Assembly (NCBI GenBank): GCA_023409435.1
Contig: JAEYHP010000156.1
Location: 2,959-66,958, forward strand
Reading direction: 5' to 3'
Source of the DNA: Bacillota bacterium
GTDB lineage: Bacteria; Bacillota; Clostridia; Christensenellales; CAG-138
DNA length: 64,000 nucleotides
The notes beneath the pieces were generated by a model, which was not told the origin of the DNA, made no database searches, and worked only from the letters and a program-made list of their open reading frames with translations. Positions 44,926 to 62,460 of this stretch are shown one piece after another (the stretch's first letter is position 1; each line of letters starts with the position of its first letter). The translations under genes and the position numbers were made by a program.

Positions 44926-44991
44926 TATGGTTCCATGCCGCTAACCCATCAGGGTATGCGCCACACCATTTTATCAGCACATGTGACGATA

Positions 44992-45033
44992 AGCCCAGCA
45001 ACGTGCCGGAGTACCCCGGCGCGTTGCTGGGCT
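44992..45033. other. Long GC-rich hairpin in a convergent intergenic region
   Basis: A 12-bp stem (AGCCCAGCAACG...CGTTGCTGGGCT) encloses a small inner hairpin (GCCGG..CCGGC). Confidence 0.5.
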
Positions 45034-45062
45034 TGTAGAGTATCCGGAGGCGCGTGCCGCCG

Positions 45063-45173: not shown

Positions 45174-46313
45174 TCATCCCTCCACGCCGATCCGGACGCT
45201 CACCCCATTGACTTCCACGTCCGCATCCGCGGGAATCAGGATGTATCTGCTCCCGTCGATCACCCGCGTTTCGATGAGATCGCTCCGCTCCGGATCGACC
45301 TTGATCACCACATCCGGCGTGCGGATCACAAACTGCTTTTTGTCGATGACGTTGGCGGGCGGAAGCTGCGCGTCCGCACCAAACTGCGCGTCAAAGGCAG
45401 CGGCAAAGGCCTGAACATGCGCTTCGGATACGCCGCACTCCTGCAGCACCGCGCCGATTTCCCTTTGCGAGAGCAACAGCTGCTCGGGCTCCTTGTTTTC
45501 CTTGTGTCGGTCTATCATTTCGCTAAAGTGTTCATGGACAGCCTGCACCACTGTGAGGCTGCAATCCTCCTTGAGCGTTTCCGTCAATATCGCTTGGAAT
45601 GTCTCCTTTTGTGCCGCGGCGGGCATGGGCGGCTCTACACGGAATACCGTATCGACAAATTCCTGATGGTTCTCCGCGGCGCTCTTCATATAGTACAACG
45701 CGCCGTAGATATTGGCTGCCCTGTCATCGAAGGCCGGAAACAGAAAGCCCAATTCCGGCGCGGATACGACATAACCCTGCGAGGTGGTATGGAAGCGGTT
45801 CTCTGCCAGTTGGTAACTTAGTTCCGCCGGGGTCAGTTTCACCGGGCATATGCTGCAAAGAATGTAGCTGAATTCCTCATCGGAAGCATCCTTCTGTACA
45901 TCGCCGTCCTTGGCCCTATATGGCACGGTATATACGTCATGGGTCAGCAGGATAAGATAGTTGCCCTCCATTTTCAGCGTTTCGATGACCCGCTGATAGA
46001 AGGTTTGCAGCATATCCGAATCCTTTAACCCCGTCTGACGGAGCATGGACAGAAGCTTGTGTTCGTCGCTGTCTATCACCTGTTTGGTGCTGAATTCTAT
46101 ATTGATCAGATTCTTTCCAAGGGAACCGGATAGAGACTTCTTCAAAAGGGAAAGAAAGCGTTCCGACCCCTCCTGCGGCATACCGGAAAGGAATTCTTCA
46201 AACGTAGCGACAACCTTTCTGTTCTCATTGACATAGCAGCCGTATACGCTGCCGATCATGCTTTTGTCCGGCCTGAAACGGCGCCGGATCTCCCGTACCT
46301 CTTTTTCGTTCAT
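45174..46313 (-). CDS. Conserved hypothetical protein, DUF4317-like
   Basis: 379-aa ORF. The N-terminus MNEKEVREIRRRFRPDKSMIGSVYGCYVNE...LSGSLGKNLINIEF matches my recollection of clostridial DUF4317 proteins. I see no catalytic motif. Confidence 0.55.
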   Translation of the reverse strand: MNEKEVREIRRRFRPDKSMIGSVYGCYVNENRKVVATFEEFLSGMPQEGSERFLSLLKKSLSGSLGKNLINIEFSTKQVIDSDEHKLLSMLRQTGLKDSDMLQTFYQRVIETLKMEGNYLILLTHDVYTVPYRAKDGDVQKDASDEEFSYILCSICPVKLTPAELSYQLAENRFHTTSQGYVVSAPELGFLFPAFDDRAANIYGALYYMKSAAENHQEFVDTVFRVEPPMPAAAQKETFQAILTETLKEDCSLTVVQAVHEHFSEMIDRHKENKEPEQLLLSQREIGAVLQECGVSEAHVQAFAAAFDAQFGADAQLPPANVIDKKQFVIRTPDVVIKVDPERSDLIETRVIDGSRYILIPADADVEVNGVSVRIGVEG

Positions 46314-47358: not shown

Positions 47359-48138
47359 TTATCCATTCTGCAACTGCTCAAATCGATAGATTGTTTCAAG
47401 CACGATCTGGATTTCACGTTCCCATGCATCGTGCAGGCGATCGTTGCGCGTCGTATAGACAACTTCCGCATTGGTGAGGTTGCCGGATGTCCCGCAGATG
47501 CAGGCGGTGCGCACGCCGCGTAAATGGCCGATGGTGTAGAGCGCGGAAGCCTCCATCTCAATGTTCATGATCTTATATTTGCGCAGACGGTCCAGAAACT
47601 CAGGGGTTTCTCCATAGAACGCGTCATCGCTGGAGTTGACGCCGACATATACGTCGTATCCGGTATCTTTCGTCATTTCCTTCGCGGTTTGGATCAGGTG
47701 CCAGGTAAACTCATAATCCGGAACCGCGGGGAACGATTCGGGCACATAGAAGCGGGACGTACCCTCGTTCTTCATAGCCGCGGTGCTGACCATCAAGTCC
47801 CCGATGCGGATGCGCGAATCCAACGCCGCGGAGCTTCCGATACGGATGAGCGTCTTTGCGCCGATATTGATGAGCTCTTCCGCCGCGATAGCCGCGGACG
47901 GGCAGCCCATACCTGTGGACGTCACGCTGATCTTCACGCCTTTATAAAAGCCGGTGAATGTCCTGTGTTCCCGGTTGTTCGCTACAAATTTCGCATCGTC
48001 AAGGTAGGAGGCAACGATATCGCTGCGGGCGGGATCGCCCGGCAAAAGTACATAGTCGCCGATATCCCCCGGTGAAAGCGCAATATGGTACTGTTTTTGG
48101 CCCTTGGTTACTTCGTTTTTATTGAGTATACTCTCCAT
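47359..48138 (-). CDS. Uridine-phosphorylase-like nucleoside phosphorylase (PNP_UDP_1 family)
   Basis: 259-aa ORF collinear with E. coli Udp motifs (LLPGDPARSD, STGMGCPSAAIAAEEL, LIRIGSSAAL, NIEMEASAL). Confidence 0.85.
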   Translation of the reverse strand: MESILNKNEVTKGQKQYHIALSPGDIGDYVLLPGDPARSDIVASYLDDAKFVANNREHRTFTGFYKGVKISVTSTGMGCPSAAIAAEELINIGAKTLIRIGSSAALDSRIRIGDLMVSTAAMKNEGTSRFYVPESFPAVPDYEFTWHLIQTAKEMTKDTGYDVYVGVNSSDDAFYGETPEFLDRLRKYKIMNIEMEASALYTIGHLRGVRTACICGTSGNLTNAEVVYTTRNDRLHDAWEREIQIVLETIYRFEQLQNG

Positions 48139-48158: not shown

Positions 48159-49493
48159 TTACAGCCTAGAGTGGCTGACTAAATATTCTGAAGCCTGCTG
48201 CGCGTTACGCCGCACGGCGTCACAATCCATTGTCAAAATTTCTCTGTTGCGCATCACCCACCGCCCGTCCACGGCCATATCCGAAACATCCGCGCCATAG
48301 GCCGAATACGCGATTGTCGCGTACAGGTTTTTGATACTCCCCCGGTGCAACGGGCAGAGCCTTGGGCTGCTCTGATCCAGCGCAATGAAGTCCGCGCGCT
48401 TATTGACCTCCAGGCTTCCGATCTTATCCTCCATATACAGCGCTTTCGCGCCTTCAATGGTGGTTAGGCGTACCATTTCCCTTGCCCCGAACATCGTCGG
48501 GTCTGCGTTCGTCTGCTTTTGCAAAAGTGCTCCGGTGCGAAGGTCCCGCAGGAGATCCATGCTGTTGTTGCTCTGCGCGCCGTCCGTACCGATGGAAACC
48601 TGTATATCCCGGTCAACAAGCGCTTTGTAGGGCATGATGCCTGAAACGAGCTTGAGATTGCTCACAGGATTGTAGCTGACATGAACGTTGTACTTTGCGT
48701 ACAGCTCCATATCCCTCTCGCCCAAGTGGATGCTGTGCGCGGCAAGCACGCGCTGGTTGAGTACGCCCAGCTGTTCAAGCCATTGGGTAGGCGTCAGGCC
48801 CGTCTTTTTTTGTATCTGCACGTTCTCGTCGAGTGTTTCGGAAATATGCGTGTGGAGGAGCACACCGTACTTTTCGCAGACTGCCGCGACCTTTTGAAAC
48901 AGCTCCCCACTTACGCTGTAGGGCGCGTGCGGGCCCATGCAGGGATATACACGCGTTTCCTCTTCGCGGCCATGCCACTTTTCCATAAATTCCGCCGCCG
49001 CGCGGAACGTGTCATCCGTCTGCGCGCATGGGTTTGTAAATACCGTGGCGCCCAATACGGCGCGGATGCCGCTGCCGCTTGCGACGTTTGCAATGTCATC
49101 CGCAAAATAAAACTGGTCCGCATAGGTCGTAATGCCGCATGAGATATACTCCATGCAGGAAAGCGCCGTCGCGGCGCACGCGCGCTCGGCATTCAGGTGG
49201 GCTTCCATCGGCCACATGGCAAGGTTGAGCCAGTCCATCAGCCGAAGATCGTCCGCCTGGTTTTTAAACAGGGAAGAATGCGAGTGGGTATGGGTATTGA
49301 TCAACCCCGGCATCACAAGCTTCCCCTGCATATCCACAACCGCGCCTTCCGGCGCAATGTCCTGCGCCGCCCCAAGCTTTGCTATCCGATTGTCTTTGAC
49401 GACCATGCTGCCGTTTTCGTAAAAGCTGTCCTGCCCGTCCACCGTAAGCAGCGTACAGTTGGTGATGGTATAGGTCCGGTTGTTTTCCGCCAT
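48159..49493 (-). CDS. Amidohydrolase-superfamily deaminase (MtaD/TRZ-ATZ-like; nucleoside or nucleobase deaminase)
   Basis: I trimmed the track ORF to the ATG at 49491-49493, which follows a GGGAGGG RBS. It has MPGLINTHTHSHSSLF (HxH metal motif) and ADDLRLMDWL. Confidence 0.8.
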   Translation of the reverse strand: MAENNRTYTITNCTLLTVDGQDSFYENGSMVVKDNRIAKLGAAQDIAPEGAVVDMQGKLVMPGLINTHTHSHSSLFKNQADDLRLMDWLNLAMWPMEAHLNAERACAATALSCMEYISCGITTYADQFYFADDIANVASGSGIRAVLGATVFTNPCAQTDDTFRAAAEFMEKWHGREEETRVYPCMGPHAPYSVSGELFQKVAAVCEKYGVLLHTHISETLDENVQIQKKTGLTPTQWLEQLGVLNQRVLAAHSIHLGERDMELYAKYNVHVSYNPVSNLKLVSGIMPYKALVDRDIQVSIGTDGAQSNNSMDLLRDLRTGALLQKQTNADPTMFGAREMVRLTTIEGAKALYMEDKIGSLEVNKRADFIALDQSSPRLCPLHRGSIKNLYATIAYSAYGADVSDMAVDGRWVMRNREILTMDCDAVRRNAQQASEYLVSHSRL

Positions 49494-49506: not shown

Positions 49507-50424
49507 TTAATCAATCATCTCGCCCGGAGCTTCGGGAGCTTTCGTTTTGCGGCCCACGCCGACGAGCACAAGCAGCGTAAGCGCATAAGGCACCATCTGT
49601 ACAAACTGGTCGGGTATGGGCAGGCTCAGGTTGATGCGAATCGCCTGGGCAAGCGCAAACAGCAGGCTTGCGAGGAACGAGCCAAGCGGGTTCCATCCCC
49701 CGAATATATTGGCCGCAAGCGCCATAAACCCGCGCCCGGCAACCATGTTGTTCACGAATACGTTGTTCTGCACAATGGAAAGGTAAGCGCCGGCCATGCC
49801 GCAGAGCATCCCGCAAATGACAACGGCAAAATACCGATATTTCCTGACATTGATGCCCACGGTGGCGGCCGCCTGGGGATGGTCGCCGATTGCCCTGAGC
49901 CTGAGCCCCGGCTTGGTTTTATAGAGCACGGACCATGCGGCAAATACAATGAGCAGCATCAGGAACAAAAACGGAGACTGTTCATGAAACAGCTCGCCCA
50001 CGACGGGGATTTCCTTCAAAAGCGGAATGCTCATGTTGGGGAGCTGCTTCACCGTGCCGCTGATGCCGTCCGTCTGCCAAACCACACGGGCAAGCACCAC
50101 GGTAAGCCCCTGCGCCAGGATATTGATGCCCACGCCGCTGACCGTCTGATTGGTTTTGAAACGGATGCTCAATACCGCATGTAAAAGTCCTGTCAGGCCG
50201 CCGCAGAATATGGAGAAAAGAACGCCAAACCACGGGCTGCCGGAAATATGCGTGCCAAACACCGCGCCAAACGCGCCGATCAGCATCATGCCCTCCACGC
50301 CCAGGTTGATAATGCCGCTGCGTTCACAAATGGTCGCCCCCACAGCCGCAAGCGCAAGGGGGATGGCAAAGCGCAGCGTGGTGAGCACAATGTTGAATGT
50401 AAAAAGGTTTCCTAAGTTATCCAT
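49507..50424 (-). CDS. ABC permease of a BMP/nucleoside-type importer
   Basis: I trimmed the track ORF to the ATG at 50422-50424 (MDNLGNLFTFNIVLTTLRFAIPLAL). The protein is polytopic. Confidence 0.85.
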   Translation of the reverse strand: MDNLGNLFTFNIVLTTLRFAIPLALAAVGATICERSGIINLGVEGMMLIGAFGAVFGTHISGSPWFGVLFSIFCGGLTGLLHAVLSIRFKTNQTVSGVGINILAQGLTVVLARVVWQTDGISGTVKQLPNMSIPLLKEIPVVGELFHEQSPFLFLMLLIVFAAWSVLYKTKPGLRLRAIGDHPQAAATVGINVRKYRYFAVVICGMLCGMAGAYLSIVQNNVFVNNMVAGRGFMALAANIFGGWNPLGSFLASLLFALAQAIRINLSLPIPDQFVQMVPYALTLLVLVGVGRKTKAPEAPGEMID

Positions 50425-51487
50425 ACGCTTTCTCTCCTTTGCGGGACACGATCTGTCTGACAATCTCGGGCGTAGCCACAAACAGGATGACAAGCCCCTG
50501 TATGACCATGACCATGTTGGTGGAAACGCTCGCCACATAACTCATCTTCATGGAGCCCGCTTCCAACGCGCCAAACAGGATGGATGTCAGGATAATGCCA
50601 AAAGGATTGTTCTGCCCCAACACAGCCACCGCGATCCCGGTAAACCCGAACCCGGGCGAGAAACCGTCGATAAAGCGGCCATACTTGCCCAATACCTCCG
50701 TCACCCCGGCCATACCGGCAAGCGCGCCGCTTGCCGCCATGACGCCGATGGTCGTAAGCGGAATATTGATGCCCGAAGGCCTCGCGGCATGCGGATTTTC
50801 CCCGATTGCGCGGATATTGAACCCGACACGGGTGGAATGGAACAGGAAGTAAAGAAGCACCGCCGCCCCCAAGCCCAAATAAAGAGCCGTCGTCAGTTGG
50901 GACCTGGGAATGATTTTTGAAAACAGGTAGACGTCGGCAATCGCCTCCGTCTGCGCCGTCATGCTCCCTTCCGCCTTCATGGGGTTGTTTACAACATAGG
51001 AAGTAAACAGCGAGACGATGTAGTTGAGCATGATGGCAACGATAACTTCGTTGATCTTAAGCTTGGCCTTGATAAACCCGATGACGGAGCCGACAAGCCC
51101 GCCCGCCACCATGCCGGCAAGGATGGCGGCACAGAGCACAAGGATGCGGGGAAGGCCATTTAGCGCGAGCGCCACGGCTGCACTGGCCAGCGCGCCAAGA
51201 TATAGCTGCCCTTCCCCGCCTATGTTGAAGATTCCCGCCTTGTTCGCAACCGCAAAGGCAAAGCCTGTAAACATCAGCGGGATACTTTTACTCAGTGTGT
51301 TCGCAATGGCGTTTGCCGAGCCAAACGCGCCGTTGAGCATGGCTGAAAACGCCTTAACGGGGTCATACCCCGCAGCAAGCATGACCACGGTAGCCACGAC
51401 AAGAGAAAGCAGGATTGCCGCAACCGAATAGATCAACTGGATCACAACTGGGTGCAGACGGCCTTTATTCCTTTCAGGCATGGGCAT
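50417..51487 (-). CDS. ABC permease of a BMP/nucleoside-type importer
   Basis: 356-aa polytopic ORF that overlaps both neighbours. Confidence 0.85.
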   Translation of the reverse strand: MPMPERNKGRLHPVVIQLIYSVAAILLSLVVATVVMLAAGYDPVKAFSAMLNGAFGSANAIANTLSKSIPLMFTGFAFAVANKAGIFNIGGEGQLYLGALASAAVALALNGLPRILVLCAAILAGMVAGGLVGSVIGFIKAKLKINEVIVAIMLNYIVSLFTSYVVNNPMKAEGSMTAQTEAIADVYLFSKIIPRSQLTTALYLGLGAAVLLYFLFHSTRVGFNIRAIGENPHAARPSGINIPLTTIGVMAASGALAGMAGVTEVLGKYGRFIDGFSPGFGFTGIAVAVLGQNNPFGIILTSILFGALEAGSMKMSYVASVSTNMVMVIQGLVILFVATPEIVRQIVSRKGEKAYG

Positions 51488-52988
51488 TCCCCTCCTTCCT
51501 TCCGGCCATCAGCAGGCTGATGGTTTGTGTATCGTATTCCTCCGCTTTCCTTACATCCATCAGTTCGCCCTTGTAGAGCACGCCGATGGTATCGCTCAGC
51601 TGGAAAATATCCGAAAGCTCCGCGGAAATCAGGAGTATGGCGGCGCCTTCGCTGCGAAGGCGCAGGAGCACGCTGTGAATATACTTAATCGCGCCGATGT
51701 CGAGCCCGCGCACCGGCTGACAGGCAAGGACAAACGGAGGCGCTTTTCCCACCTCGCGCGCAAGCACAAACTTCTGCTGGTTGCCGCCCGAAAGCGAGCC
51801 GGCGCTTTGCTGCGCATCCACCGCGCGCACGTCAAATTCCTTCATCATGCGTTCCGTGCACGCTTTGAGATGCTGTTTCCGGATGAGCCCCCGCCGTATA
51901 TACTGATCCCCGTATTGGTTGCCAAGCAGGTAGTTTTCCTGCAGAGAGAATCCTGACAAAATCGCCTGCTTCAACCGGTCGGAAGGAATATAGCCAAAAT
52001 TCAGATCCCGCCGCGCCTTAGGCGGCTTGTTCATCAGATCCATTTCCTGGTACAAAAGCTTTCCCGTCTTGCTGCGGCAAAGCCCCATGACGATCTCCTC
52101 CAGCTGCTGCTGGCCGTTGCCCTCCACACCTGCTATTCCGAATATTTCCCCCGCCTTTACCTCAAAGGAAACGGTGGACTGAGCATTGGGCAGTAACCTT
52201 ACATCCTGCACGCGCAGTACGGTATCACCCGCCTGAACCGCAGGTTTTTCCACCTCAAACGTCACGTCATAGCCCACCATCTGCCTGGCAAGCTCATTCG
52301 GGCAGGTTTGTGCCGTATCGAGCAGCGCAACGGATTTTCCCGCGCGCAGTATGGTGATGCGGTCCGCCACTTCCATGGTTTCCTTGAGCTTGTGGGTAAT
52401 GAATATAATTGTCTTGCCCTGTATCCGCATGTCCTTCAGGATAGAAAGGAGCTGCTCCGCCTCGATGGGGGTGAGCACCGCGGTCGGTTCATCCAGTATG
52501 ATGATCTCGGCGCCCCGGTAGAGAGTCTTTAATATTTCCACGCGCTGCTTCATGCCGACGGAAAGGCCGCATAAGAGCGCGTCCAGGTCTACGTCAAAAT
52601 GGTACTGGTCCGAAAGTTTTTGAACCGTCTGCCGCGCCGCTTTTTTGTCTATCACGATCCGGCCCGGCTCGCTGCCCAATATGATATTCTCCAGGCAGCT
52701 TAAATTGTTGATGAGCATAAAGTGCTGATGTACCATGCCGATGCCAAGCTGAAAAGCCATACGCGGATTCATTTGGCATATAGGCTTGCCGTTAATCTCC
52801 ACCGAACCCTCCTCGGGCCGGTATAAGCCGAAGAGGACCTTCATCAAGGTGGACTTTCCCGCCCCGTTTTCGCCCAGCAAGCAATGGATTTCGCCTTTTT
52901 TGACTTCAAAATCGATATGATCGTTCGCGGTCATATTGCCAAAGCGTTTGGTAATGCCGCGCATGTTTACTGCCAGCAAAAGGCCCAC
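51474..52988 (-). CDS. Tandem-domain ABC ATPase of a BMP/nucleoside-type importer
   Basis: 504-aa ORF with two NBDs (GENGAGKST...ILDEPTA and LSGGNQQKF). The track start is a GTG at 52988. An alternative ATG lies at 52964, so the start is uncertain. Confidence 0.88.
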   Translation of the reverse strand: MGLLLAVNMRGITKRFGNMTANDHIDFEVKKGEIHCLLGENGAGKSTLMKVLFGLYRPEEGSVEINGKPICQMNPRMAFQLGIGMVHQHFMLINNLSCLENIILGSEPGRIVIDKKAARQTVQKLSDQYHFDVDLDALLCGLSVGMKQRVEILKTLYRGAEIIILDEPTAVLTPIEAEQLLSILKDMRIQGKTIIFITHKLKETMEVADRITILRAGKSVALLDTAQTCPNELARQMVGYDVTFEVEKPAVQAGDTVLRVQDVRLLPNAQSTVSFEVKAGEIFGIAGVEGNGQQQLEEIVMGLCRSKTGKLLYQEMDLMNKPPKARRDLNFGYIPSDRLKQAILSGFSLQENYLLGNQYGDQYIRRGLIRKQHLKACTERMMKEFDVRAVDAQQSAGSLSGGNQQKFVLAREVGKAPPFVLACQPVRGLDIGAIKYIHSVLLRLRSEGAAILLISAELSDIFQLSDTIGVLYKGELMDVRKAEEYDTQTISLLMAGRKEGNAHA

Positions 52989-53114: not shown

Positions 53115-54248
53115 TTAGCCGATCGGGTTTGCTAAGACAAACGCGTCTACTTCTTCAAGCGTGGTGGGAATGATGAGGCTGCCATCCTTCACCTTTTCCT
53201 TTAAGGATTCGATGATTGCCACATCTTCGTCGCTGACCTTGATGTTGCTGCCTTCGAGCGTATAGCCTACGCCGTCATCCTTCAGGCCAAGTATGGTGGT
53301 CGTGCCCACAGCGAGATTGCCGTCTACACACGCCGCCTTTACAATTTCAAACGCCGCGGTATCCACGCGCTTCAACATGCTGGCTACGATATGGTCCGGA
53401 TCCAATACGTTCTGGTTGGAGTTGACGCCGATGGCCATAAAGTTCTTTTCCTTTGCCGCCTGGAACACGCCAAGGCCGGAACCGCCCGCAGCATGGTAGA
53501 TGACGTCTGCGCCCTTATCGAACTGGCTGAGCGCAATTTCTTTAGCGGTTGTGATGTCGCTGAACGGGTTGTTGCCGCTTACATAGTCGGTAAATACGCT
53601 GATCTGAGGATTCACCAGCTTTGCGCCAGCCTGATAGCCTGCGTTGAACTTGACAAGAAGGGGAATTTCCATTGCGGCAATAAAGCCAAGCTGATTGTTG
53701 TCCGCAACGCCGTAAGCCGCGGCATTCTTCTTCATCAGGCCCGCAAGAGCGCCCACAAGAAAAGAGCCTTCTTCTTCTTTACAGGTGTAGTTCGCAATGT
53801 TGTCACCCGTTACTTCGCCATCAATCAGGGCAAACTGCTGGTCAGGGAATTCGGGGGCGACTTTGGTGAGGGGATCTACCTGGTCAAAACCGACGCAGAC
53901 GATTACGCCATATTCGCCGGAGCTGGCCATGTCGCGCATGATGAGCTCAAACTCGGAAATCTGCTTGGGTTCTGCATAGTCAAAGGCAACGCCGAGGTCA
54001 CTTTCGGCCTTCTTCATGCCGGCATATACCAGATCGTTGTAGGATTGGTCGCCCAGACCGCCGACGCCAAGGATGACTGCCGCCTTCGTTGCGCTTGTCT
54101 GCTCAGGCTGCACCGCTTGCTCGGTCTGCTCAGGGGCAGGAGCGGATCCCGCAGGGGTTTCCGATGGGGCGGCGCCGGGGGCAGCGCAGGAGACCGCCAT
54201 ACCGCATACAAGCAGCACAGCAAGCACCATAACCGTAAGCTTTTTCAT
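53115..54248 (-). CDS. BMP-family (PnrA/Med-like) nucleoside-binding lipoprotein
   Basis: I trimmed the track ORF to the ATG at 54246-54248. The N-terminus is MKKLTVMVLAVLLVCGMAVSC (lipobox), followed by a Pro/Ala/Glu tether and the BMP core (GVGGLGDQSYNDL). Confidence 0.88.
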   Translation of the reverse strand: MKKLTVMVLAVLLVCGMAVSCAAPGAAPSETPAGSAPAPEQTEQAVQPEQTSATKAAVILGVGGLGDQSYNDLVYAGMKKAESDLGVAFDYAEPKQISEFELIMRDMASSGEYGVIVCVGFDQVDPLTKVAPEFPDQQFALIDGEVTGDNIANYTCKEEEGSFLVGALAGLMKKNAAAYGVADNNQLGFIAAMEIPLLVKFNAGYQAGAKLVNPQISVFTDYVSGNNPFSDITTAKEIALSQFDKGADVIYHAAGGSGLGVFQAAKEKNFMAIGVNSNQNVLDPDHIVASMLKRVDTAAFEIVKAACVDGNLAVGTTTILGLKDDGVGYTLEGSNIKVSDEDVAIIESLKEKVKDGSLIIPTTLEEVDAFVLANPIG

Positions 54249-54346
54249 GTTCTTTCCTCCGTTCAACCTTTCAAATGTAATCCTGCCGCCAAAGCGCGAC
54301 AAAAGCAGCTTGGCCAATTCATTTTCGTACCACGCTGTACATTGTT

Positions 54347-54658
54347 TATACAAGTTACGCTTTGGAAGCAAGATTTGTCTAAATCATAGCACGCAAAAAA
54401 CAGACAGTCAATAGGGTTAATTTGAAATTATGTTCGCTCTAGGCCGAATATTAGCAGGCCTCCGTTTGCTTTTTCATTGATTGCTCTTATAGCCAACCGA
54501 GACACTTGTATAACCACCGGAACTTGTACCGGCCAAAACAGGCCGACTTTGCATGAATCGAGGCCCGGATGCTTGATCGGAGTGCCGTAGCAACTGATGG
54601 AAATATTCACAGGACTTATAAAGAAACAATAGCCACTTGTACAAAACAGCCTGTACAA
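54347..54658. promoter_or_regulatory. Cluster of ACTTGTA(Y) half-site motifs (candidate GntR-family operators) in the 480-nt leader/promoter region
   Basis: The copies are TATACAAGT (54347-54355, inverted), ACTTGTATA (54504-54512), ACTTGTACC (54522-54530) and ACTTGTACA (54635-54643, inside the palindrome TTGTACAA). CTGTACAA also occurs at 54651-54658 and CTGTAC at 54335-54340. Confidence 0.5.
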
Positions 54659-54728
54659 CAAAAGAACCCCACCGAATCCCGCTGACGGGCGTTCGCTGGG
54701 GCATTTCCCATTCATACTCTTTAATGCG

Positions 54729-55700
54729 CTATGCCAGCGTTCCGCCCAATGCGCCAAACAGCTCATCAAGCACGCCCTTTTCATCCACGTCCACGCAGGC
54801 TTGAACCATAGGCCCCGCGAAAGGACGGCAGCGTTCGTCTACCACAACTTTGCCGCGGCAGTATGCTCCGCCGCACTCCACATGCGCGCGGAAAGAACGT
54901 ATGGTAAACAGTTCAGGGCGCAGCGCGCAAATCACGGCGGAAGGATCGTGCAGCGGGGAACTGCCGTCGCAGCCCTCCACCCTTCGGTAGAAGTCCATAT
55001 AGTGCCGGGTGGCGGCCTCAATATATTCCCAAGACGAGCGCGCATCCGGTGCGGCGGCTGCAAGGGAAGCCTGTATTTGGCGTACCGTCAGGCGCGTCTT
55101 GGTTGTTACGTCAAGCCCAACGAATGTAAAGGGGATGCCGGAGCATATCGCGTATTCTGCCGCTTCCGGGTCGCCGAATATGTTGGCTTCCGCACAGCAG
55201 GTGATGTTGCCGGGCGTATAGATCGTGCCGCCCATCGATACAACGCGCGCAAGCTCCTCTTTCAGGGAGGGGTATTGCTCCAGTGCGCGCGCAAGCGTTG
55301 TGAGCCTGCCCAGGGTTACAAGCACGAGCTTTCCGCCCAGTTCCCGTGCGGTGTTCGAAAGAAAGCGTTCTGCGAATTCCGCAAGGGGCCGCTGCGCGGA
55401 AGCGGGCAGCGTTACCCCGCCGATGCCGTTCTCTCCATGCACGCTGACGGTGGGACCTTCCATCCATTCGCCGCCAAGCGGCTTGTCCGCACCCAAGACC
55501 ACGGGCACCTCATACCCGGGAGCAGCAAGCCGGATGATGCGCAGCGTATTTTCCGCAGCCTGCTCCGCCGTTGTGTTGCCAAAGCTGGCAATCACGCCAT
55601 GCACGCGGATCGCGGGATTTTTAAGCGCGTATAAAAGCGCAATGGAATCGTCAATGCCCGTATCGGCATCGATAACGATATGCAGAGGTTCCTTTGTCAT
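54729..55700 (-). CDS. Inosine-uridine-preferring-type nucleoside hydrolase (IUNH family)
   Basis: I trimmed the track ORF to the ATG at 55698-55700 (MTKEPLHIVIDADTGIDDSIALLYAL), which carries the DxDxxxDD Ca-binding fingerprint. Confidence 0.88.
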   Translation of the reverse strand: MTKEPLHIVIDADTGIDDSIALLYALKNPAIRVHGVIASFGNTTAEQAAENTLRIIRLAAPGYEVPVVLGADKPLGGEWMEGPTVSVHGENGIGGVTLPASAQRPLAEFAERFLSNTARELGGKLVLVTLGRLTTLARALEQYPSLKEELARVVSMGGTIYTPGNITCCAEANIFGDPEAAEYAICSGIPFTFVGLDVTTKTRLTVRQIQASLAAAAPDARSSWEYIEAATRHYMDFYRRVEGCDGSSPLHDPSAVICALRPELFTIRSFRAHVECGGAYCRGKVVVDERCRPFAGPMVQACVDVDEKGVLDELFGALGGTLA

Positions 55701-55701
55701 T

Positions 55702-56547
55702 TTATACAACCAATATCCTTTCACAGCCTGCCTGCCGTACGATGCTTGCAAGCGCTTCCATTTCGGCGTCGTCGGGCACGGCGTGCGCCCGGTATGTATC
55801 CCGTACGCCTAAGGGGCGGAAGCGTATCAGCTTGTACCGGACGGGACTGCCGGTTTTCCAATAAGGAGCGAGGATGCTGCATACCTGTTCCACGGTATCC
55901 GCGTTGGGCAAGGCGTTTGACACCACAACGGTCCGCACCTCTTCCAATTTCCCCGCTCCAGCAAGAAAATCAAGGTTTTTTAACGCCATGTCGTTCGTTT
56001 GCCCCGTAAGCTGCAGGTGCTGGGCCGTGTCTGCGCATTTTATATCCAGCATCACGCCGTCGCAGACGGACAGAAGCGCAGGATCGGCTGCAAAATCATA
56101 GCTGCCGTTGGAATCAAACAGCACCGTGAGCCCAAGCGCCTTTGCGCCCCTGGAGACCTCATAGAGAAAATCCCGCCAAAGCGTACACTCCCCGCCGGAA
56201 AACGTAATGCCGCGGATAAACGGAATGTTGCGCTTGATGCGGTCAAGCGCCTGCTCCGGCGTCATCCAATTGATTTTCGGAGAAGCATTGTGCATACATG
56301 CTTTCAGGCACGCGTCGCAGGCGCAGCAAACGGAAGCGTCCCAGCGGACAGCGCCATCCTTCATACGCAGCGCCCCTGTGGGACAGACGCTTACGCAATC
56401 CCCGCAATGGATACAGGCATTGATGGTCTCCGGGTTGTGGCAGTAGCCGCAGTTGAAATTGCAGCCCTGCAAAAACAGCGCGGTACGGTTTCCCGGACCG
56501 TCCACGCTGCTTTGGTCAATGATACGGTTGACAGGCGCCAGCATCAT
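55702..56547 (-). CDS. yjjW: Glycyl-radical-enzyme activase, YjjW-like (radical SAM with two extra ferredoxin-type clusters)
   Basis: 281-aa ORF with GCNFNCGYCHNPE (CX3CX2C), CIHCGDCVSVCP and CCACDACLKAC motifs. It forms an ATGA overlap with the glycyl-radical-enzyme (GRE) stop. Confidence 0.85.
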   Translation of the reverse strand: MMLAPVNRIIDQSSVDGPGNRTALFLQGCNFNCGYCHNPETINACIHCGDCVSVCPTGALRMKDGAVRWDASVCCACDACLKACMHNASPKINWMTPEQALDRIKRNIPFIRGITFSGGECTLWRDFLYEVSRGAKALGLTVLFDSNGSYDFAADPALLSVCDGVMLDIKCADTAQHLQLTGQTNDMALKNLDFLAGAGKLEEVRTVVVSNALPNADTVEQVCSILAPYWKTGSPVRYKLIRFRPLGVRDTYRAHAVPDDAEMEALASIVRQAGCERILVV

Positions 56548-58112
56548 AGCTGGCGGACTTTCCGTTCCAGAATTTTCGCGTTTCGCACCTCACCAAGACC
56601 CCAAAGGGCGTTGTGCTGCTGCACGGCCTCGCCGCGCGCAAGCTTTTCCATATCCGAGCGCTTGACAAGATACCCGGTAATACGCACCACGTCCGCGTCG
56701 CTGGCATAGGTGGAGAAATAGCGCATGCCTACCGAGAACGAGCCTCGAATAAGATCCAGCAGGCTTTCGGGGTTGTTTTTGAGCGTGACCTCAAACGGGA
56801 AGATATCTCCCGTTCCGGAATGGAAGAAGGGGTGAAACTTTCCCGCGTGGCGCAGGTGCTCATAAAGCGGGATTTCCTCGCCGATGGGGATGCGCGCGCC
56901 GGGGCTGGTACCGATATCGCTGTCGATGCCGACCTGCGCGTGCAGGGAATAGTGGTCGGCGCTGATCTCGCAATACGCGCAGCGGTGCGCCTCCACAAGC
57001 GCGGTGAGCCGTTCCATAACGGTAAGCCCCAGCGCGTCCGCCTCCTTGCTGTGGCCAAAGCGGAAGGAATTGCCCGCCTTTTCACACAGCGTGTTGACGC
57101 ATTCTGCCAAGCCTACCATACCGAACATGCCGGTGAACAGCTCGCGCTTCAAGAAGCCTTCCTGCACCAGAAAGTTGGAGCGGAAGAACAGGCTTTCCTC
57201 CACCAAAAACTTGATTTTCTCGTCCATGAAGGCATTGATTGTAAATACCGCTTGCGGCAGCACGCGGGCAAAGAAATCTTCCTGGTCCGCCGCCTGTTTT
57301 GCCGCCTGGTGAAGGTTCAGGCGGCACAGCGTATACGCCCCGCCGCCCACGGGCAGCGCGTTGTAACAGCTTGCGATGCCGTATTCCACCGGATACTCGT
57401 TCCGATACGTCTTATGGTCGGCAAAGCTGGGGCTTGCGTAGGCAAGGGCGTTGCGGATGCACTTGTTCGCAAACGCGTCGGGCGTAATATCGGGGTCATA
57501 CAGCATGGTCATGCCGGGGACGGCGTTCTGCAGTTCATATCCGCAATCCAATATGATATTGCCCGCCAAAGTTTCCTCCGGCCCGATATTGGCGTGCGCG
57601 TAGGAATCTGAAATCGTTCTATCGATGAATATCAGGAAATTCTTGATCAGGTAATGTGCTTCTTCCTCATCCTTTATAAACGGATTGAGCAATTGATCAA
57701 TCCTGCCGAGGTAAACCGGGAAATTGGTTACAGAAGGGACGTGGCGGTAAAACATAAGAAGCGCCTGGGTGGCCTCAAACAGGTTCGTTGGCGGATCGAT
57801 ACGCAAAAACTTGCAGCCGTCCTTCATCAGCTTGGCGTAATCCGGCAGCAGGTAACGCGGGCAGTAGGGCGCATATCCTTCCCCAAGGTCGGAGATTACG
57901 CCTAAGTCCGAGAGCTGCTCGTACCCTTCGGGTATTGGGAAAGCGAAAAACGCCTGTGCGGGCAGGCGGGAAAGGTTCATCATCGCCTGTTCGTGCGTAA
58001 ATGAAGTATCCTTGATAATACGCAGCGCACTTTCAGGCAGAGGGGAAAGTAGACTCATAAGGCTCATCCTTTCAACTTCAGATATGCCGATCTCTTTAAT
58101 TTCATTATACAA
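56544..58112 (-). CDS. yjjI: YjjI-family (DUF3029) putative glycyl radical enzyme
   Basis: The ORF is about 505-522 aa. A C-terminal VVRITGYLV motif (RxxG glycyl-radical loop) lies about 45 aa from the end. Size and pairing with a YjjW-type activase fit the family. The track start is a TTG with no RBS. The ATGs at 58067 and 58058 are better start candidates, the latter preceded by AAAGGA. Confidence 0.75.
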   Translation of the reverse strand: MYNEIKEIGISEVERMSLMSLLSPLPESALRIIKDTSFTHEQAMMNLSRLPAQAFFAFPIPEGYEQLSDLGVISDLGEGYAPYCPRYLLPDYAKLMKDGCKFLRIDPPTNLFEATQALLMFYRHVPSVTNFPVYLGRIDQLLNPFIKDEEEAHYLIKNFLIFIDRTISDSYAHANIGPEETLAGNIILDCGYELQNAVPGMTMLYDPDITPDAFANKCIRNALAYASPSFADHKTYRNEYPVEYGIASCYNALPVGGGAYTLCRLNLHQAAKQAADQEDFFARVLPQAVFTINAFMDEKIKFLVEESLFFRSNFLVQEGFLKRELFTGMFGMVGLAECVNTLCEKAGNSFRFGHSKEADALGLTVMERLTALVEAHRCAYCEISADHYSLHAQVGIDSDIGTSPGARIPIGEEIPLYEHLRHAGKFHPFFHSGTGDIFPFEVTLKNNPESLLDLIRGSFSVGMRYFSTYASDADVVRITGYLVKRSDMEKLARGEAVQQHNALWGLGEVRNAKILERKVRQL

Positions 58113-58367
58113 GTTGATAAAAAAGATGCAACGCTTTTAGGAAGAAAAAATCCGCATCATATAAAATTCCAGATATATTCTGGGATTCTCGCATAAGAAA
58201 AGTTAAATAGACGTGGAATTAATTTTAGACAAGTTTAAAACAGATTTAGCGGCCGGAGTTCGCTTTAAACCGCACATCAAAGCATTTTGACATTTAGAAA
58301 AAAATATGGGAATATATGATAAAGGTCATCAGACATAACGAACAGATCATAAAAGGAGAGTAAAATC

Positions 58368-58838
58368 ATGAGGAAGCTGCCCGTAATTCTCTGCATATTG
58401 CTGATGTCTTTCATGTTGGCTATACCCGCGTTTGCCGCTGCATACTCTCCCGCGGAACTGGACGAACTTTGCGGCGTTGTGGAGGGTATTCTGGGAAAAG
58501 AACATACCTATACGACTGCTGTGAAATGGGATTCTGTGTTCGTCGAAGTTGATAACGATCAGTTTTATGATGTATGTGACTTTGTACAAAGCAATCCCTC
58601 CTTTGAGAACATCCCAATTATCGTGCACAACAAATCAGGGGGAACGTATTTAGGTAAAGATGATGAGGGCTGGTATATAGTGGAGCCCAACGCTATCCCG
58701 ACCGACGGGGAACCCGTGCTTAATCCGCCTTCGACGGGGGACATACCCAACGTCTTCCCAAGCGTTGCGTTGGTGGCCATGGCTGTTGGCGCGCTGGCAT
58801 TACTGTCAACATACAGGCGGCGAGGTCGGCAACATTGA
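58368..58838 (+). CDS. Small secreted, probably sortase-anchored surface protein
   Basis: 156-aa ORF with an AAAGGAG RBS and the signal peptide ...IPAFA/AA. The C-terminus is NPPSTGD, then a hydrophobic helix, then RRRGRQH. This is an (S/P)PxTG-type sorting signal. Confidence 0.7.
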   Translation: MRKLPVILCILLMSFMLAIPAFAAAYSPAELDELCGVVEGILGKEHTYTTAVKWDSVFVEVDNDQFYDVCDFVQSNPSFENIPIIVHNKSGGTYLGKDDEGWYIVEPNAIPTDGEPVLNPPSTGDIPNVFPSVALVAMAVGALALLSTYRRRGRQH

Positions 58839-58884
58839 AATGTCTTTTAAGATCAAAGCTAACAATCAAATATTGTGTTGCCTG

Positions 58885-59442
58885 TCAACGGGGCGGACGC
58901 CCCATGATAAAATGACTGAGGAAAAACAGATGGCTAAAACGAAATGCTATACAAACAGTTACTATTAAGGCAAGAATATTTACAACCTTAACAGTCCTGC
59001 TCGTAAAGATCCTGAATAATAAAGCATAAATACCAATGCCGAGTATCCCGCCAAGCGTATTACCCAGTATGTCGGTGATGTCGGTTCTTCCCATTGCAAA
59101 AATGAACTGTGTACCTTCAAATAGTAAGGATAGACCGATAACCGGAAGGACTTTTTTCACAAAAGACCATTCGCTTTTTAACATGCCAATATAGATGCCT
59201 AACGGGATAAAAAGAAGTATATTATAAATGATTTCACGTAAAAGTATAACTCCGTCTGCATCAAAAGACCCCTGAAGCGGAATCAGGTTGATTACTCGTA
59301 TCCCATCCGATATTTCAGAATAAAACGGCAGTTTGAAAAGAATAATCCCCGTCAATATCAACATGTATATCGCGAACAATACGATTGTAAGAGTATTTTG
59401 CTTTTCACTTTTCATTGGCTTTTCTCCTATATAGTTGCTCAC
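58885..59442 (-). CDS. vanZ: VanZ-family membrane protein
   Basis: 185-aa ORF with 4-5 TM helices and a VanZ-like pattern (NLIPL..., DITDILGNTLGGILG). It follows vanY directly. Confidence 0.7.
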   Translation of the reverse strand: MSNYIGEKPMKSEKQNTLTIVLFAIYMLILTGIILFKLPFYSEISDGIRVINLIPLQGSFDADGVILLREIIYNILLFIPLGIYIGMLKSEWSFVKKVLPVIGLSLLFEGTQFIFAMGRTDITDILGNTLGGILGIGIYALLFRIFTSRTVKVVNILALIVTVCIAFRFSHLFFLSHFIMGRPPR

Positions 59443-59459
59443 ATCTGCGGTACAACTGG

Positions 59460-60188
59460 TTATTTCATATTATCCAGGTATTCCTCGAGGCAGATACCCT
59501 GCGTGTAAATTTCCTTTGCCGCTTCCACTCCAACATATCTGTAATGCCATGGCTCATAAATCGTACCTGTTATGTCAGCTTTATCAGACGGATAACGGAG
59601 GATAAACCCGTATTTATAGCCGTTTTTATGCAGCCACCCGTAAACCTCGTCACTCGTTGATTGATCCGCATCCGCATTGATGTCAACCGCAATTCCCAGT
59701 TGATGTTCGCTTGTTCCCGGAACCGCAACCGATTCTTCGGCTAATTCTTGCGCCTTCGCCGCGGAATAGCCTTGCGCTTTATATTCCTCAACTTTTTCAT
59801 CCAGAAGGTTTTGCTGATAGTCCGCCGTCCTATACCCCGATGCAACAACAGGATATATGCCGTCCGCTCTTGCGGCATCGAACATGGCCTGGAGGCTGGG
59901 GTAAATCCTCGTATCAACGTTCTGGCCGTTTGAGAGCTGCGTCAGATCCACTTCATAATCCTCGGGTATGGTATTTTGCCGGTTGACAAGGATCAGGCTC
60001 CATATATCGGCTTTTGTCGACGATCTATCCCACAGATCATCTATATTGATTTTGTCGATCAGCAGCTTTCCGCAAACCAGCACGATAAGGCAGATAACTA
60101 TCAATAAAGATTTTCGTATCTTTCCTGCTCCTGAATTGTGACGCGCCCGCTGCTGTCTGTTATTCGCTTTATAAGAGCCCCGTTCCAT
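59460..60188 (-). CDS. vanY: VanY-type D,D-carboxypeptidase (peptidase M15B)
   Basis: I trimmed the track ORF to the ATG at 60186-60188, which follows an AAGGAG RBS. It has an N-terminal TM anchor and the motifs SGYRTADYQ, PGTSEHQLGIAVDI, GFILRYP and EPWHYRYVG. Confidence 0.8.
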   Translation of the reverse strand: MERGSYKANNRQQRARHNSGAGKIRKSLLIVICLIVLVCGKLLIDKINIDDLWDRSSTKADIWSLILVNRQNTIPEDYEVDLTQLSNGQNVDTRIYPSLQAMFDAARADGIYPVVASGYRTADYQQNLLDEKVEEYKAQGYSAAKAQELAEESVAVPGTSEHQLGIAVDINADADQSTSDEVYGWLHKNGYKYGFILRYPSDKADITGTIYEPWHYRYVGVEAAKEIYTQGICLEEYLDNMK

Positions 60189-60338
60189 TCCATACTCCTT
60201 TAACGAAAAAAGCCGGTTTATCCTTGGCATCAAGTATACCGTCGGATAAACAGGCGCTACTTTAATCTGAAATTGCTATTTTACTAAGAAAGAATTGAGG
60301 CATCCATAAGATTTTATTAACATTAGAAGGAACTTGTC

Positions 60339-61493
60339 TTAGGGCGTCTTTACCGATAAATCAACGGGGAGTTCCACACAAAATGTTGTACATTCATTGT
60401 CACTCTCAGCGCTGATGGTACCGCCATGTAAAGAAATGATATCTTTGGCAATGGCAAGCCCTAACCCCGCTCCGCCCGTTGCGCTTGATCTGGCGGCGTC
60501 CAACCTGTAAAACTTCTCAAATATTAAATTCAGCTGGTCCTTGGGAACGACCCCCTGGTTTTCAAAACGAATACTGACTTTATCGGGTTTTGCTTCCGCA
60601 GTGATATCAATCGTGCTGTCATCCACGCTATACGCAATCGCGTTTTTCAGAATATTGTTGAACACCCTGGCGAGCTTCTCGGAATCCCCGTAAACGATGA
60701 CATTTTCTTTGATATCGGTTTTTATTTGTTTTCCGCTCGCAGCAAGCTGCGGATACATTTCATCGGCAATCTGCACCATCATATAGCACAGGTTTATGTT
60801 TTCCTTGTTAAGCGGCAAATACTGAAGGTTATAGCGTGTGATCTCAAAGAACTCGCTGATCAGCTTTTCAAGGCGATACGCCTTTTCAAGCGCTATCCCA
60901 ACATATTTCGCTTTCTGCTTCGTCGGCATGTCCGGGGCCTCGTTAAGCAGGCTTAAATATCCGATTACCGAAGTAAGAGGGGTCCTGATATCGTGTGCAA
61001 GATAAACGACGAGGTCGTTTTTTCGCTGTTCCTCGGCCTGAGCTTGTTCCGTACGTTTTTTCAGCTTGTCCTTTACCTCAGTCAGTTTTGTTTCCATGAA
61101 TTTAAGCTCGGGGCTCAGTACAATTGCCTCATTGTCTTCCTCCGCCAACTTGTCTATGCCGGTAACAATCTGATCAAAATATTTCGCAAACCAGGAAAAT
61201 GACAGACGTAACAAAATAAAGAAAAATACAATCATTGTGGCCACAATGATAATATCTAAATTGTTTCTGATATACCACTGATAGATGAAGTCTGAGGACT
61301 TCGGATCAGTACGCCACAGGATTCCAATGAGCCGAACCAGAAAGTCCGCCAATTTCCCTCTCAATACAACGCGCAGCACGAGTACAAGAACGGCGGCGGC
61401 CCCCAGTACCGCAATTGTCTGATAGAATAATCTTTGGATCAGCTTACTGTATACTTTTCCCCTTAACGTTTTATTTTTCAATTTTGTAGCCAA
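60339..61493 (-). CDS. vanS: VanS-type sensor histidine kinase
   Basis: 384-aa ORF collinear with my recollection of Tn1546 VanS (KLKNK..., QRKNDLVVYLAHDIRTPLTSVIGYLSLL, APDMP..KAKYV, ARVFNNILKNA, GGAGLGLAIAK). It has a TTG start that overlaps vanR by 23 nt. Confidence 0.85.
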   Translation of the reverse strand: MATKLKNKTLRGKVYSKLIQRLFYQTIAVLGAAAVLVLVLRVVLRGKLADFLVRLIGILWRTDPKSSDFIYQWYIRNNLDIIIVATMIVFFFILLRLSFSWFAKYFDQIVTGIDKLAEEDNEAIVLSPELKFMETKLTEVKDKLKKRTEQAQAEEQRKNDLVVYLAHDIRTPLTSVIGYLSLLNEAPDMPTKQKAKYVGIALEKAYRLEKLISEFFEITRYNLQYLPLNKENINLCYMMVQIADEMYPQLAASGKQIKTDIKENVIVYGDSEKLARVFNNILKNAIAYSVDDSTIDITAEAKPDKVSIRFENQGVVPKDQLNLIFEKFYRLDAARSSATGGAGLGLAIAKDIISLHGGTISAESDNECTTFCVELPVDLSVKTP

Positions 61494-62172
61494 CCCCCCA
61501 TACCGTTTTGATATACTTCGGGTTTTCTACCGTGTCGTTCATTTTCTCTCGTAAATGGCGGATGTGGACGGTGATCGTATTATTGTTCTTGTTGAAATAT
61601 TCGTCCTTCCAGATTTCATGGAACAATTCTTCTGAGCTGACGACCTTGCCTTTCCTCTCCAGCAGGATGCGAAGTATGGAAAACTCGGTAGGTGTGAGTA
61701 CAAGCGGTGTTTCGTTTATAAAGCATTCATGGGTTTTGTCATTCATCACCAGGTCGGAATAAACAATAACAGATTCCGGGGCGACGTCAATCTGTGCAGT
61801 ATTGTACTTTTTGTATCTGCGCAATTGAGCTTTCACCCTCGCCACCAGTTCAAGAGGACGAAAAGGCTTTGTAACATAATCGTCTGCTCCCAAAGTCAGC
61901 CCGGTAATCTTGTCGGTTTCTTCATCTTTGGCTGTCAGCATAATAATGGGATAGGTAAAACGTTCCCGTATTTTCTGACAAAGCGCAAAACCATGGATGT
62001 CCGGCAGCATAATGTCAAGAATTGCAAGGTCAAGCTCCGTAGTATCTATACATGTAAGAGCGTCCTTTGCAGAGTAAAACTTAAATACTTCATAATTTTC
62101 ATTCCGCAGGTATACTTCTATTAAATCCGCTATTTCATGTTCATCGTCAACAACAAGAACTTTATCGTCCAT
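61471..62172 (-). CDS. vanR: VanR-type OmpR-family response regulator
   Basis: 233-aa ORF with near full-length similarity to my recollection of Tn1546 VanR (VDDEHEIADL, DLAILDIMLP, TKPFRPLEL.ARVKAQLRRYKK, ITVHIRHLREKMNDT..NPKYIKTVWGVGYKIEK). Confidence 0.88.
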   Translation of the reverse strand: MDDKVLVVDDEHEIADLIEVYLRNENYEVFKFYSAKDALTCIDTTELDLAILDIMLPDIHGFALCQKIRERFTYPIIMLTAKDEETDKITGLTLGADDYVTKPFRPLELVARVKAQLRRYKKYNTAQIDVAPESVIVYSDLVMNDKTHECFINETPLVLTPTEFSILRILLERKGKVVSSEELFHEIWKDEYFNKNNNTITVHIRHLREKMNDTVENPKYIKTVWGVGYKIEK

Positions 62173-62460
62173 GATTTTCAGCTCCTTTCAGGCAGGACTC
62201 AACATCTTACTATTTTATCAAATTCGGTAACGATATTTATAATTTCCCGCATGAGAAAGTATTAAAATTCTCATAAGGACCCCGCTTCCTTATGCCTGCA
62301 CTCAACGAAGTTCTCCATTCATCTGTTCACGGGGCCTTGACCAGGCGAAGTCCCCAGCACACCCTCTTACCGCCAATATTTCCCTCGCCTCTGTTTGACA
62401 CCTTTACAATCCCCGCGCGTCATATTACCATAGCAACAGACGTGCGAAGGGGGATACTGA

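Follow-up and report, generated by a model that had tools for sequence, protein, structure and literature searches.

A YjjI-type glycyl radical enzyme and its YjjW-type activase in an apparent operon with a nucleoside hydrolase, and the possible link of this family to nucleosides

The Escherichia coli glycyl radical enzyme (GRE) YjjI, encoded next to its activase YjjW, is among the few GREs of this organism to which no reaction has been assigned. Members of the family are found in gut Clostridia, Enterobacterales, Pasteurellaceae and further anaerobic or facultatively anaerobic bacteria. A preprint of August 2026, which reports in-cell labelling of E. coli YjjI at Gly465, in a motif equivalent to RITGY (see below), calls the protein uncharacterised, a June 2026 review of the GRE superfamily does not mention it, and NCBIfam release 20 (June 2026) types the models for the enzyme (TIGR04040) and its activase (TIGR04041) as 'hypoth_equivalog'. 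Here, we describe a yjjI–yjjW pair in a window of 64,000 nucleotides (nt) from a Clostridia bacterium (Christensenellales, CAG-138; contig JAEYHP010000156.1). An initial annotation of this window, made from the sequence alone, had assigned two of its genes to the YjjI/YjjW pair, had stated that the reaction of YjjI was still unknown and had proposed an anaerobic radical step on a nucleoside-derived substrate. Our search of the literature to September 2026, with most subscription journals outside its coverage, likewise found no paper assigning YjjI a reaction, and nothing relevant tying GREs to nucleosides, uridine, uracil, deoxyribose, deoC or nupC; in the literature searched there was no earlier proposal linking YjjI to nucleosides. 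On balance, the evidence assembled below tips towards a locus that encodes a working YjjI GRE and YjjW activase in an operon with a nucleoside hydrolase, beside a GntR-linked operon for nucleoside import and breakdown, from which we infer a radical step directed at a ribosyl group.

The GRE of the window matches Pfam PF11230 (YjjI-like, formerly DUF3029) over its full length (E = 3.5e-196, profile positions 2–485 of 485) and TIGR04040 with 640.6 bits against a cutoff of 498.3 (residues 11–502 on profile positions 3–497 of 497). The neighbouring protein of 281 amino acids (aa) matches TIGR04041 (YjjW) with 348.1 bits, the cutoff being 250.2, and its next-best matches are activases of the PflC/HypD type, not NrdG. 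Both family assignments of the initial annotation are therefore borne out by scores above curated cutoffs. Near its C-terminal end the GRE carries the glycyl loop that had been read from the sequence (...ASDADVVRITGYLVKRSD...). In alignments of 12 and of 60 sequences, the former taking in Firmicutes, E. coli and one member of the Fusobacteriota, R459, T461, G462 and Y463 (RITGY, with G462 as the predicted radical glycine) are invariant, and so are S230, C231, Y232 and N233. C231, the putative thiyl cysteine, is the only invariant cysteine of the protein; it aligns with C419 of pyruvate formate-lyase (PFL) and, at low probability, with the MGC384R stretch of E. coli NrdD, the class III ribonucleotide reductase (RNR). 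As had also been noted, the activase contains the motif CNFNCGYC (C29-x3-C33-x2-C36) typical of radical S-adenosylmethionine (SAM) enzymes and two ferredoxin-type cysteine motifs, CIHCGDCVSVCP and CCACDACLKAC (C45/C48/C51/C55 and C74–C84), and it matches the Pfam families Radical_SAM, Fer4_12 and Fer4_7.

Compared to the E. coli proteins, YjjI of the window is 39.4% identical over 98% of its length and YjjW is 41% identical, also over almost its whole length. The two systems share the RxTGY glycine motif, the single SCYN cysteine, an overlapping gene pair and a nucleoside-catabolic neighbour. They differ in that translation of the window pair is coupled to that of a nucleoside hydrolase, with a BMP-type ATP-binding cassette (ABC) importer and a GntR regulator alongside, whereas the E. 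coli pair is divergent from deoCABD and was linked to FNR in older expression work; the initial annotation had placed E. coli yjjI–yjjW next to deoCABD correctly. YjjW adjoins YjjI in 77 of 83 loci examined. The family is compact: among 1.84 billion representatives searched with the profile there were 636 matches, only about 20 of them full-length clusters at 50% identity, which suggests one conserved function. The locus described here is a further, ordinary and well-conserved member of this known family, in a sensible operon. One E. coli contig of 2.9 kilobases (kb) carries a predicted protein of 574 aa (P0274) with both a YjjI-like and a DeoC/LacD aldolase Pfam domain; this fusion is probably an assembly or gene-calling artefact, as the E. 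coli genes are divergent neighbours.

All genes of the operon lie on the minus strand. The mechanically called open reading frame (ORF) of the GRE spans 56544..58112 and is opened by a TTG at 58112, but this codon falls within a conserved -10 element (TG-TATAAT) and was ruled out as the start. The likely start of yjjI is the ATG at 58058, which is preceded at a spacing of 8 nt by the ribosome-binding site GAAAGGA and gives a protein of 504 aa (56544..58058), close to the earlier estimate of about 510 aa; an ATG at 58067 is an alternative. The same arrangement of ribosome-binding site and ATG recurs in a relative with 86% identical YjjI (locus L003). yjjW (55702..56547) starts within an ATGA at 56544–56547, where its ATG overlaps the yjjI stop codon, and its own stop codon TAA (55702–55704) is followed by a single A at 55701 and then by the ATG, at 55700, of a gene for a 323-aa IUNH-family nucleoside hydrolase (54729..55700). 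The overlap and the one-nucleotide spacing are as initially annotated. The hydrolase matches PF01156 over its full length (265.5 bits, cutoff 34.2; E = 9.6e-79) and has the N-terminal DxDxxxDD motif for calcium and ribose binding (D11-A-D13-T-G-I-D17-D18), the DADTGIDD reported before. It scores far below the equivalog cutoffs for RihA (183 bits against 433), RihC (174 against 382) and UriH (144 against 450), and therefore no substrate specificity was assigned to it. The order yjjI–yjjW–hydrolase is also found in L003 and in a closer relative, L094, whose YjjI is 96% identical.

Upstream of yjjI we identified a candidate promoter at 58104..58131 on the minus strand, composed of a -35 element TTGCAT (58131–58126), a 16-nt spacer and the extended -10 element TG-TATAAT (58111–58104). 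The block GCGTTGCA...TTGTATAAT.AAA is kept 5' of yjjI in both L094 and L003 despite divergence of the surrounding sequence. A scan for consensus promoters did not pick up this site, which is under its -35 threshold. About 27 nt past the hydrolase stop codon, a terminator-like GC-rich hairpin followed by UUCUUUUGUUG occupies 54657..54702 on the minus strand; a 92-nt stretch containing it folds as RNA with -30.7 kcal/mol (z = -1.9), and a simple terminator scan did not detect it. The hairpin probably ends the operon, and yjjI, yjjW and the hydrolase gene look like one transcription unit.

When one genome was scanned for each species, at least 591 loci encoding a relative were found, and the 80 closest of these were taken with 10-kb flanks. 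ORFs were called, the 1,322 flanking proteins were clustered by all-against-all BLAST, and recurrent clusters were labelled with NCBIfam and Pfam; nucleoside genes were counted over 78 species-level loci, with strictly nucleoside-specific families only. At least one nucleoside-specific gene was present within 10 kb in 43 of the 78 loci and directly adjacent in 25. The rate of nucleoside genes per slot was 30% at position -1, 24% at -2 and 19% at -3, and 16–22% at +4 to +6, just beyond three transporter genes; at -4 to -10 it was 3.6% (13/360). Nucleoside genes are strongly concentrated next to yjjI–yjjW, and the link is recurrent, not universal. The most frequent neighbours were an ABC ATPase (43 loci), a BMP binding protein (30–31; homologues of the window's BMP protein adjoin yjjI in 30 of the 78) and the permeases of the BMP importer (28), together with a Udp/DeoD-family phosphorylase (20–21), a Crp/Fnr-type regulator (21), cytidine deaminase (Cdd, 11), phosphopentomutase (DeoB, 9–10), deoxyribose-phosphate aldolase (DeoC, 9–10) and an amidohydrolase as in the window (10). 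A PfkB-family kinase of the pseudouridine/ribokinase type (PsuK-like) was found in nine loci, pseudouridine-5'-phosphate glycosidase (PsuG) in seven, an IUNH nucleoside hydrolase in six to seven, adenosine deaminase (Add) in six and a PunA-type phosphorylase in four. In 16 species, yjjI–yjjW is placed between the BMP gene and the gene for its ABC ATPase, all on the same strand and with short gaps (e.g. 114, -1 and 12 nt in locus L080). Among the clustered flanks, no base-degrading, base-transport, phosphoribosyltransferase or ring-opening family was recurrent. Genes for DHFR, an S58 peptidase, MATE efflux, thiolase, BirA, glycine cleavage, PepF and chemotaxis receptors also recurred and were set aside as lineage-specific synteny. 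In two Lachnospiraceae loci (L070 and L078), ORF clustering placed a Udp-like protein, Cdd or DeoB, a Crp-type regulator and a second BMP gene between yjjI and yjjW, which may be a real rearrangement or an effect of assembly or ORF calling.

The association is not confined to the Firmicutes, and the Gammaproteobacteria provide independent links. yjjI–yjjW is divergent from deoCABD in E. coli, Salmonella and Edwardsiella, and in Edwardsiella a gene for a NupC-family nucleoside transporter also adjoins yjjW. In Moellerella and on contig L090, nupC, yjjI and yjjW follow one another on one strand with a gap of about 70–80 nt and without deo genes. A Haemophilus influenzae genome note lists a YjjI enzyme, a radical SAM protein and a transporter of the NupC/NupG type within a single region of 3.1 kb. 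Two unrelated families of nucleoside importers, the BMP-type ABC importer and NupC, are thus found beside the pair in different phyla, which we regard as the strongest single argument for a nucleoside link. The association proposed initially from one Firmicute and one proteobacterium extends to 43 of the 78 loci, several architectures and both transporter families.

To compare YjjI with GREs of known structure, an AlphaFold2 model was built on the 60 sequences and was predicted with a pLDDT of 93.2 and a pTM of 0.92. The best Foldseek matches of this predicted model were GRE structures exclusively. The top 30 matches in the PDB were all class III RNR, with E values of about 1e-17 to 5e-13, 12–14% identity and query TM-scores up to 0.78, and PFL-type dehydratases formed a second tier (E of about 1e-12 to 1e-10). 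When the family profile was run against PDB chains, no solved YjjI structure was found, only marginal matches to PFL and HPAD. YjjI shares with NrdD the C-terminal glycyl radical loop, an aligned Cys-loop cysteine and a partial match to the NRDD model PF13597 (residues 238–357 only, 31.1 bits), besides having the class III enzymes as its closest solved folds. It differs in length (about 500 aa, against about 600–700 aa) and in having no second catalytic cysteine, no zinc cysteine motif and no ATP-cone. In both YjjI alignments, no equivalent of the second active-site cysteine used for reduction (T4 C79) was found, the aligned stretch reading P-R-Y, and no conserved cysteine lies at residues 380–462, where a four-cysteine zinc site would precede the glycine loop. 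YjjW, with two extra ferredoxin-like clusters, resembles PflC/HypD activases and is unlike NrdG (41 bits against TIGR02491, cutoff 126; 77 bits against the NrdG2 model TIGR02495, cutoff 131), and the genomic context of YjjI is one of catabolism and transport, not of deoxynucleoside triphosphate (dNTP) supply. No NrdD that could have widened the alignment was present among the loci surveyed.

With the PFL-type dehydratases and lyases (glycerol and propanediol dehydratase, HypD, CutC, and PflD acting on a sugar phosphate), YjjI has in common a single thiyl cysteine, an activase of its own that carries auxiliary clusters, and an operon setting in catabolism. These enzymes have about 750–850 aa and a Cys loop of the G-C-x-E type, whereas YjjI is about 300 aa shorter and has the loop S-C-Y-N, and a PFL-like Pfam model covers just 68 residues of it. 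The lack of a zinc site and of any invariant cysteine besides C231 makes a canonical reductase unlikely. It fails several features that define RNRs, yet plausibly shares their first step. In the alignment with NrdD, invariant P-R68-Y69 stands opposite the stretch carrying the second, bottom-face cysteine, and the invariant residues R68 and R246 fall on active-site stretches, which would be compatible with a phosphorylated substrate.

Our favoured reading, which we put forward tentatively, is that YjjI is a GRE of a kind not recognised before, which uses an RNR-like hydrogen abstraction on the ribosyl part of a nucleoside, a nucleoside monophosphate (NMP) or a ribose phosphate, in the service of catabolism and not of dNTP synthesis. 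Under anoxia, YjjW would use SAM and a [4Fe-4S] cluster to place a radical on Gly462, and this radical would move to Cys231 to give a thiyl radical. The Cys231 thiyl would then abstract hydrogen from the ribosyl part of an imported nucleoside, its NMP or a ribose phosphate, a reaction resembling the first step of class III RNR. As the protein has only one invariant cysteine and no zinc site, we favour an elimination, a dehydration or a lyase-type outcome over canonical two-electron reduction. The ribosyl part is preferred over the base because the fold relatives act on ribose, because DeoB, DeoC and kinases of the ribose/pseudouridine type recur next to yjjI while base-degrading and base-transport families do not, and because a phosphate would go well with the two invariant arginines, which lie in stretches predicted to belong to the active site. 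The pairs that stand alone would also be explained if the substrate were a central metabolite such as ribose-5-phosphate. As far as genomics reaches, these data support the initial proposal of an anaerobic radical step on a nucleoside-derived substrate, and they narrow the list of substrates to purchasable compounds, namely nucleosides, NMPs, ribose and deoxyribose phosphates and possibly uracil. If true, a ribose-directed radical reaction would be a new reaction type for the GRE superfamily and an evolutionary bridge from class III RNR to catabolic GREs. It would also fill a gap in the anaerobic fermentation of nucleosides by gut bacteria and would mean that anaerobes, E. coli and many gut Clostridia among them, have a radical route to break down nucleosides or pentoses that current pathway maps lack.

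Several observations weigh against this reading. The sample of 80 loci, made up of the query's nearest relatives and mostly from Clostridia, is biased towards Firmicutes. In 35 of the 78 loci (about 45%), no nucleoside gene lies within about 9–10 kb. The same was found for Proteus, Vibrio, Aeromonas, Microbulbifer, a Chloroflexota bacterium and Haliovirga, where tblastn with Deo, Udp, Cdd, Add, PunA, PsuK/G, IUNH, BMP and NupC queries retrieved only yjjI and yjjW, and within 6 kb on the metagenome contig L093. Since the deo genes adjoin the pair in E. coli, Salmonella and Edwardsiella but not in Proteus, this adjacency is weak evidence on its own. In a tree of YjjI, the BMP-linked loci form two neighbouring clades (divergently arranged in the clade of the window, inserted in Lachnospiraceae), and the pseudouridine genes occur in two Clostridium subclades with two arrangements; the independent linkage events therefore perhaps number about 5–7, not 43. 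The hhalign comparison of YjjI with E. coli NrdD that sets C231 opposite the catalytic cysteine was made with a single NrdD sequence and is weak (probability 26%), and similarity of the predicted fold to NrdD does not fix the chemistry of YjjI. The case for a substrate is drawn from genomes throughout, and the neighbouring genes favour the ribosyl part over the base rather than prove it. Finally, a 2011 expression-clustering paper grouped E. coli yjjI with nitrate- and FNR-controlled genes, on the basis of narG co-expression and an FNR-like motif, and proposed a role in nitrogen metabolism.

A substrate unrelated to nucleosides is an explanation that we consider unlikely though worth keeping in view. 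In that case YjjI would act on some common metabolite of anaerobes, and the clustering would stem from regulation shared in anaerobiosis or scavenging, or from synteny inherited in a few lineages. The pair stands alone not only in about 45% of the sampled loci but also in most of the sampled non-enteric Proteobacteria, the E. coli gene is co-expressed with nitrate- and FNR-controlled genes, and a compact, highly conserved family is what would be expected for a common metabolite. Moreover, the neighbour in many loci (21 in all) is not a nucleoside gene but a Crp/Fnr-type regulator. However, insertion within a transporter operon in 16 species is hard to attribute to co-regulation alone, and the tight NupC operons and the translational coupling to a nucleoside hydrolase are equally hard to explain in this way. 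The link also takes at least five architectures and involves two unrelated transporter families, and the stand-alone pairs could be reconciled with the nucleoside link if the substrate were a common metabolite such as ribose-5-phosphate. The Crp/Fnr-family regulator itself (a cNMP-binding domain plus HTH_Crp_2) adjoins yjjI often divergently and in some loci without nucleoside genes (e.g. L010, 9006–9737; L020, 12449–13171), which suggests dedicated control of yjjI, with anoxia or a small ligand as possible signals; a regulator gene of this type is absent from the window.

We regard it as improbable that the nucleobase, once set free, is the substrate of YjjI; the most plausible such base would be uracil. 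Uridine phosphorylase, cytidine deaminase with a phosphorylase, pyrimidine nucleoside hydrolase and pseudouridine-5'-phosphate glycosidase all yield uracil, and the most frequent partners of yjjI converge on it (Udp-like, 20 loci; Cdd, 11; PsuK/PsuG, 7–9; RihA-like IUNH, 6), purine enzymes being rarer (4–6 loci). The coupled hydrolase of the window would free a base and unphosphorylated ribose. Yet the Udp-like proteins score under the uridine phosphorylase cutoff, so that pyrimidine specificity is not established for them, and a recurrent base permease, phosphoribosyltransferase or ring-opening enzyme is lacking near yjjI. In addition, the closest fold is that of a ribose-directed enzyme, and the two invariant arginines fit an anionic substrate better than uracil.

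Very improbable, finally, is a true reductase, a minimal relative of class III RNR that makes 2'-deoxy products from nucleosides, NMPs or ribose-5-phosphate for DeoC or for deoxynucleoside salvage: NrdD is the best structural match, DeoC is linked in nine Firmicute loci and in E. coli, Salmonella and Edwardsiella, and E. coli makes excess formate anaerobically, which NrdD uses as reductant, but YjjI has P-R68-Y69 in place of the bottom-face cysteine stretch and no second invariant cysteine, comes without a zinc-ribbon cysteine motif, an ATP-cone or an NrdG-type activase, and is covered by the NRDD Pfam model over only 120 residues at 31 bits.

Downstream of the three-gene operon, the window carries the nucleoside genes that the initial annotation had placed directly after the hydrolase. 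The genes are present as described, but they belong to a separate, next operon, which begins after a gap of about 480 nt and appears to have its own promoter. This gap holds the terminator-like hairpin and a sigma-70-like promoter on the minus strand at 54383..54411 (TTGACT, 17 nt, TG-TATGAT), with 10 of 12 consensus matches and an extended -10 element. Promoter-like sites are no commoner in the region than in shuffles, and this candidate promoter is only suggestive. The operon encodes, on the same strand, a BMP/PnrA-family substrate-binding lipoprotein of a nucleoside-type ABC importer (53115..54248; PF02608, E = 3.6e-56), the ABC ATPase (51474..52988; PF00005) and two permeases (50417..51487 and 49507..50424; PF02653). 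These are followed by an amidohydrolase of the TRZ/ATZ, 5'-deoxyadenosine-deaminase and SsnA group (48159..49493; PF01979, E = 2.7e-60), whose best NCBIfam matches are all under their cutoffs and which is a probable nucleoside or base deaminase. Next come a Udp/DeoD-family nucleoside phosphorylase (47359..48138; PF01048, E = 2e-43), with 203 bits against the uridine phosphorylase model TIGR01718 (cutoff 280) and 35% identity to E. coli DeoD, and a GntR-family regulator (46503..~47279; PF00392, E = 9.7e-16), the probable regulator of the locus. DeoB, DeoC, NrdD and NupC were searched for in the 64-kb window and none was found.

In L094, the order is YjjI–YjjW–hydrolase–GntR (9001–13498), with the GntR gene directly after the hydrolase gene and without the BMP, ABC, amidohydrolase and Udp block. 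The three-gene operon and GntR therefore make up the conserved core in this lineage, and the transporter block of about 7 kb is an insertion/deletion difference between close relatives. Two sequence elements may bear on the regulation of the locus. Within the 64 kb there are just two copies of the 12-mer AACTTGTMTAAA, at 58224–58235 (5' of yjjI) and at 54345–54356 (5' of the BMP gene), and a near copy at 58105–58116 overlaps the yjjI -10 element. The GntR regulator may use the 12-mer as an operator common to both sites. As these two sites themselves supplied the pattern, and as about 0.7 near-matches of this kind would be expected when the two regions are compared, it is a lead rather than a result. 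A perfect inverted repeat found nowhere else in the window (TTGTACA-N8-TGTACAA, 54637–54658) comes immediately after the putative hydrolase terminator and may be a binding site for a regulator. An Rfam scan of 44–60 kb at permissive thresholds revealed no riboswitch or other Rfam family in the gap of about 480 nt or in the leader, and a match to the plant microRNA MIR8008 at 44989–45034, in a GC-rich region and with 38 bits against a gathering score of 66, was taken as chance.

Just past the GntR gene, at 45174–46313, lies a gene for a DUF4317 protein of 379 aa (E = 3.6e-140), which was not seen adjoining yjjI elsewhere. On the other side, a low-GC stretch (58300–62200; 43–44%, against about 56% around it) lies immediately 5' of the yjjI promoter. 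It contains genes for a VanZ-like protein (58885..59442), for a VanY-type D-Ala-D-Ala carboxypeptidase (59460..60233) and for the histidine kinase (60339..61493) and the OmpR-type response regulator (61471..62172) of a two-component system, together with a membrane-anchored ORF of 156 aa without a Pfam match. The stretch looks like an acquired cell-wall or glycopeptide-response island that is unrelated to yjjI. In L094, a gene for a PTS_EIIC_2-family membrane protein is found upstream, at the place where the window has this low-GC island.

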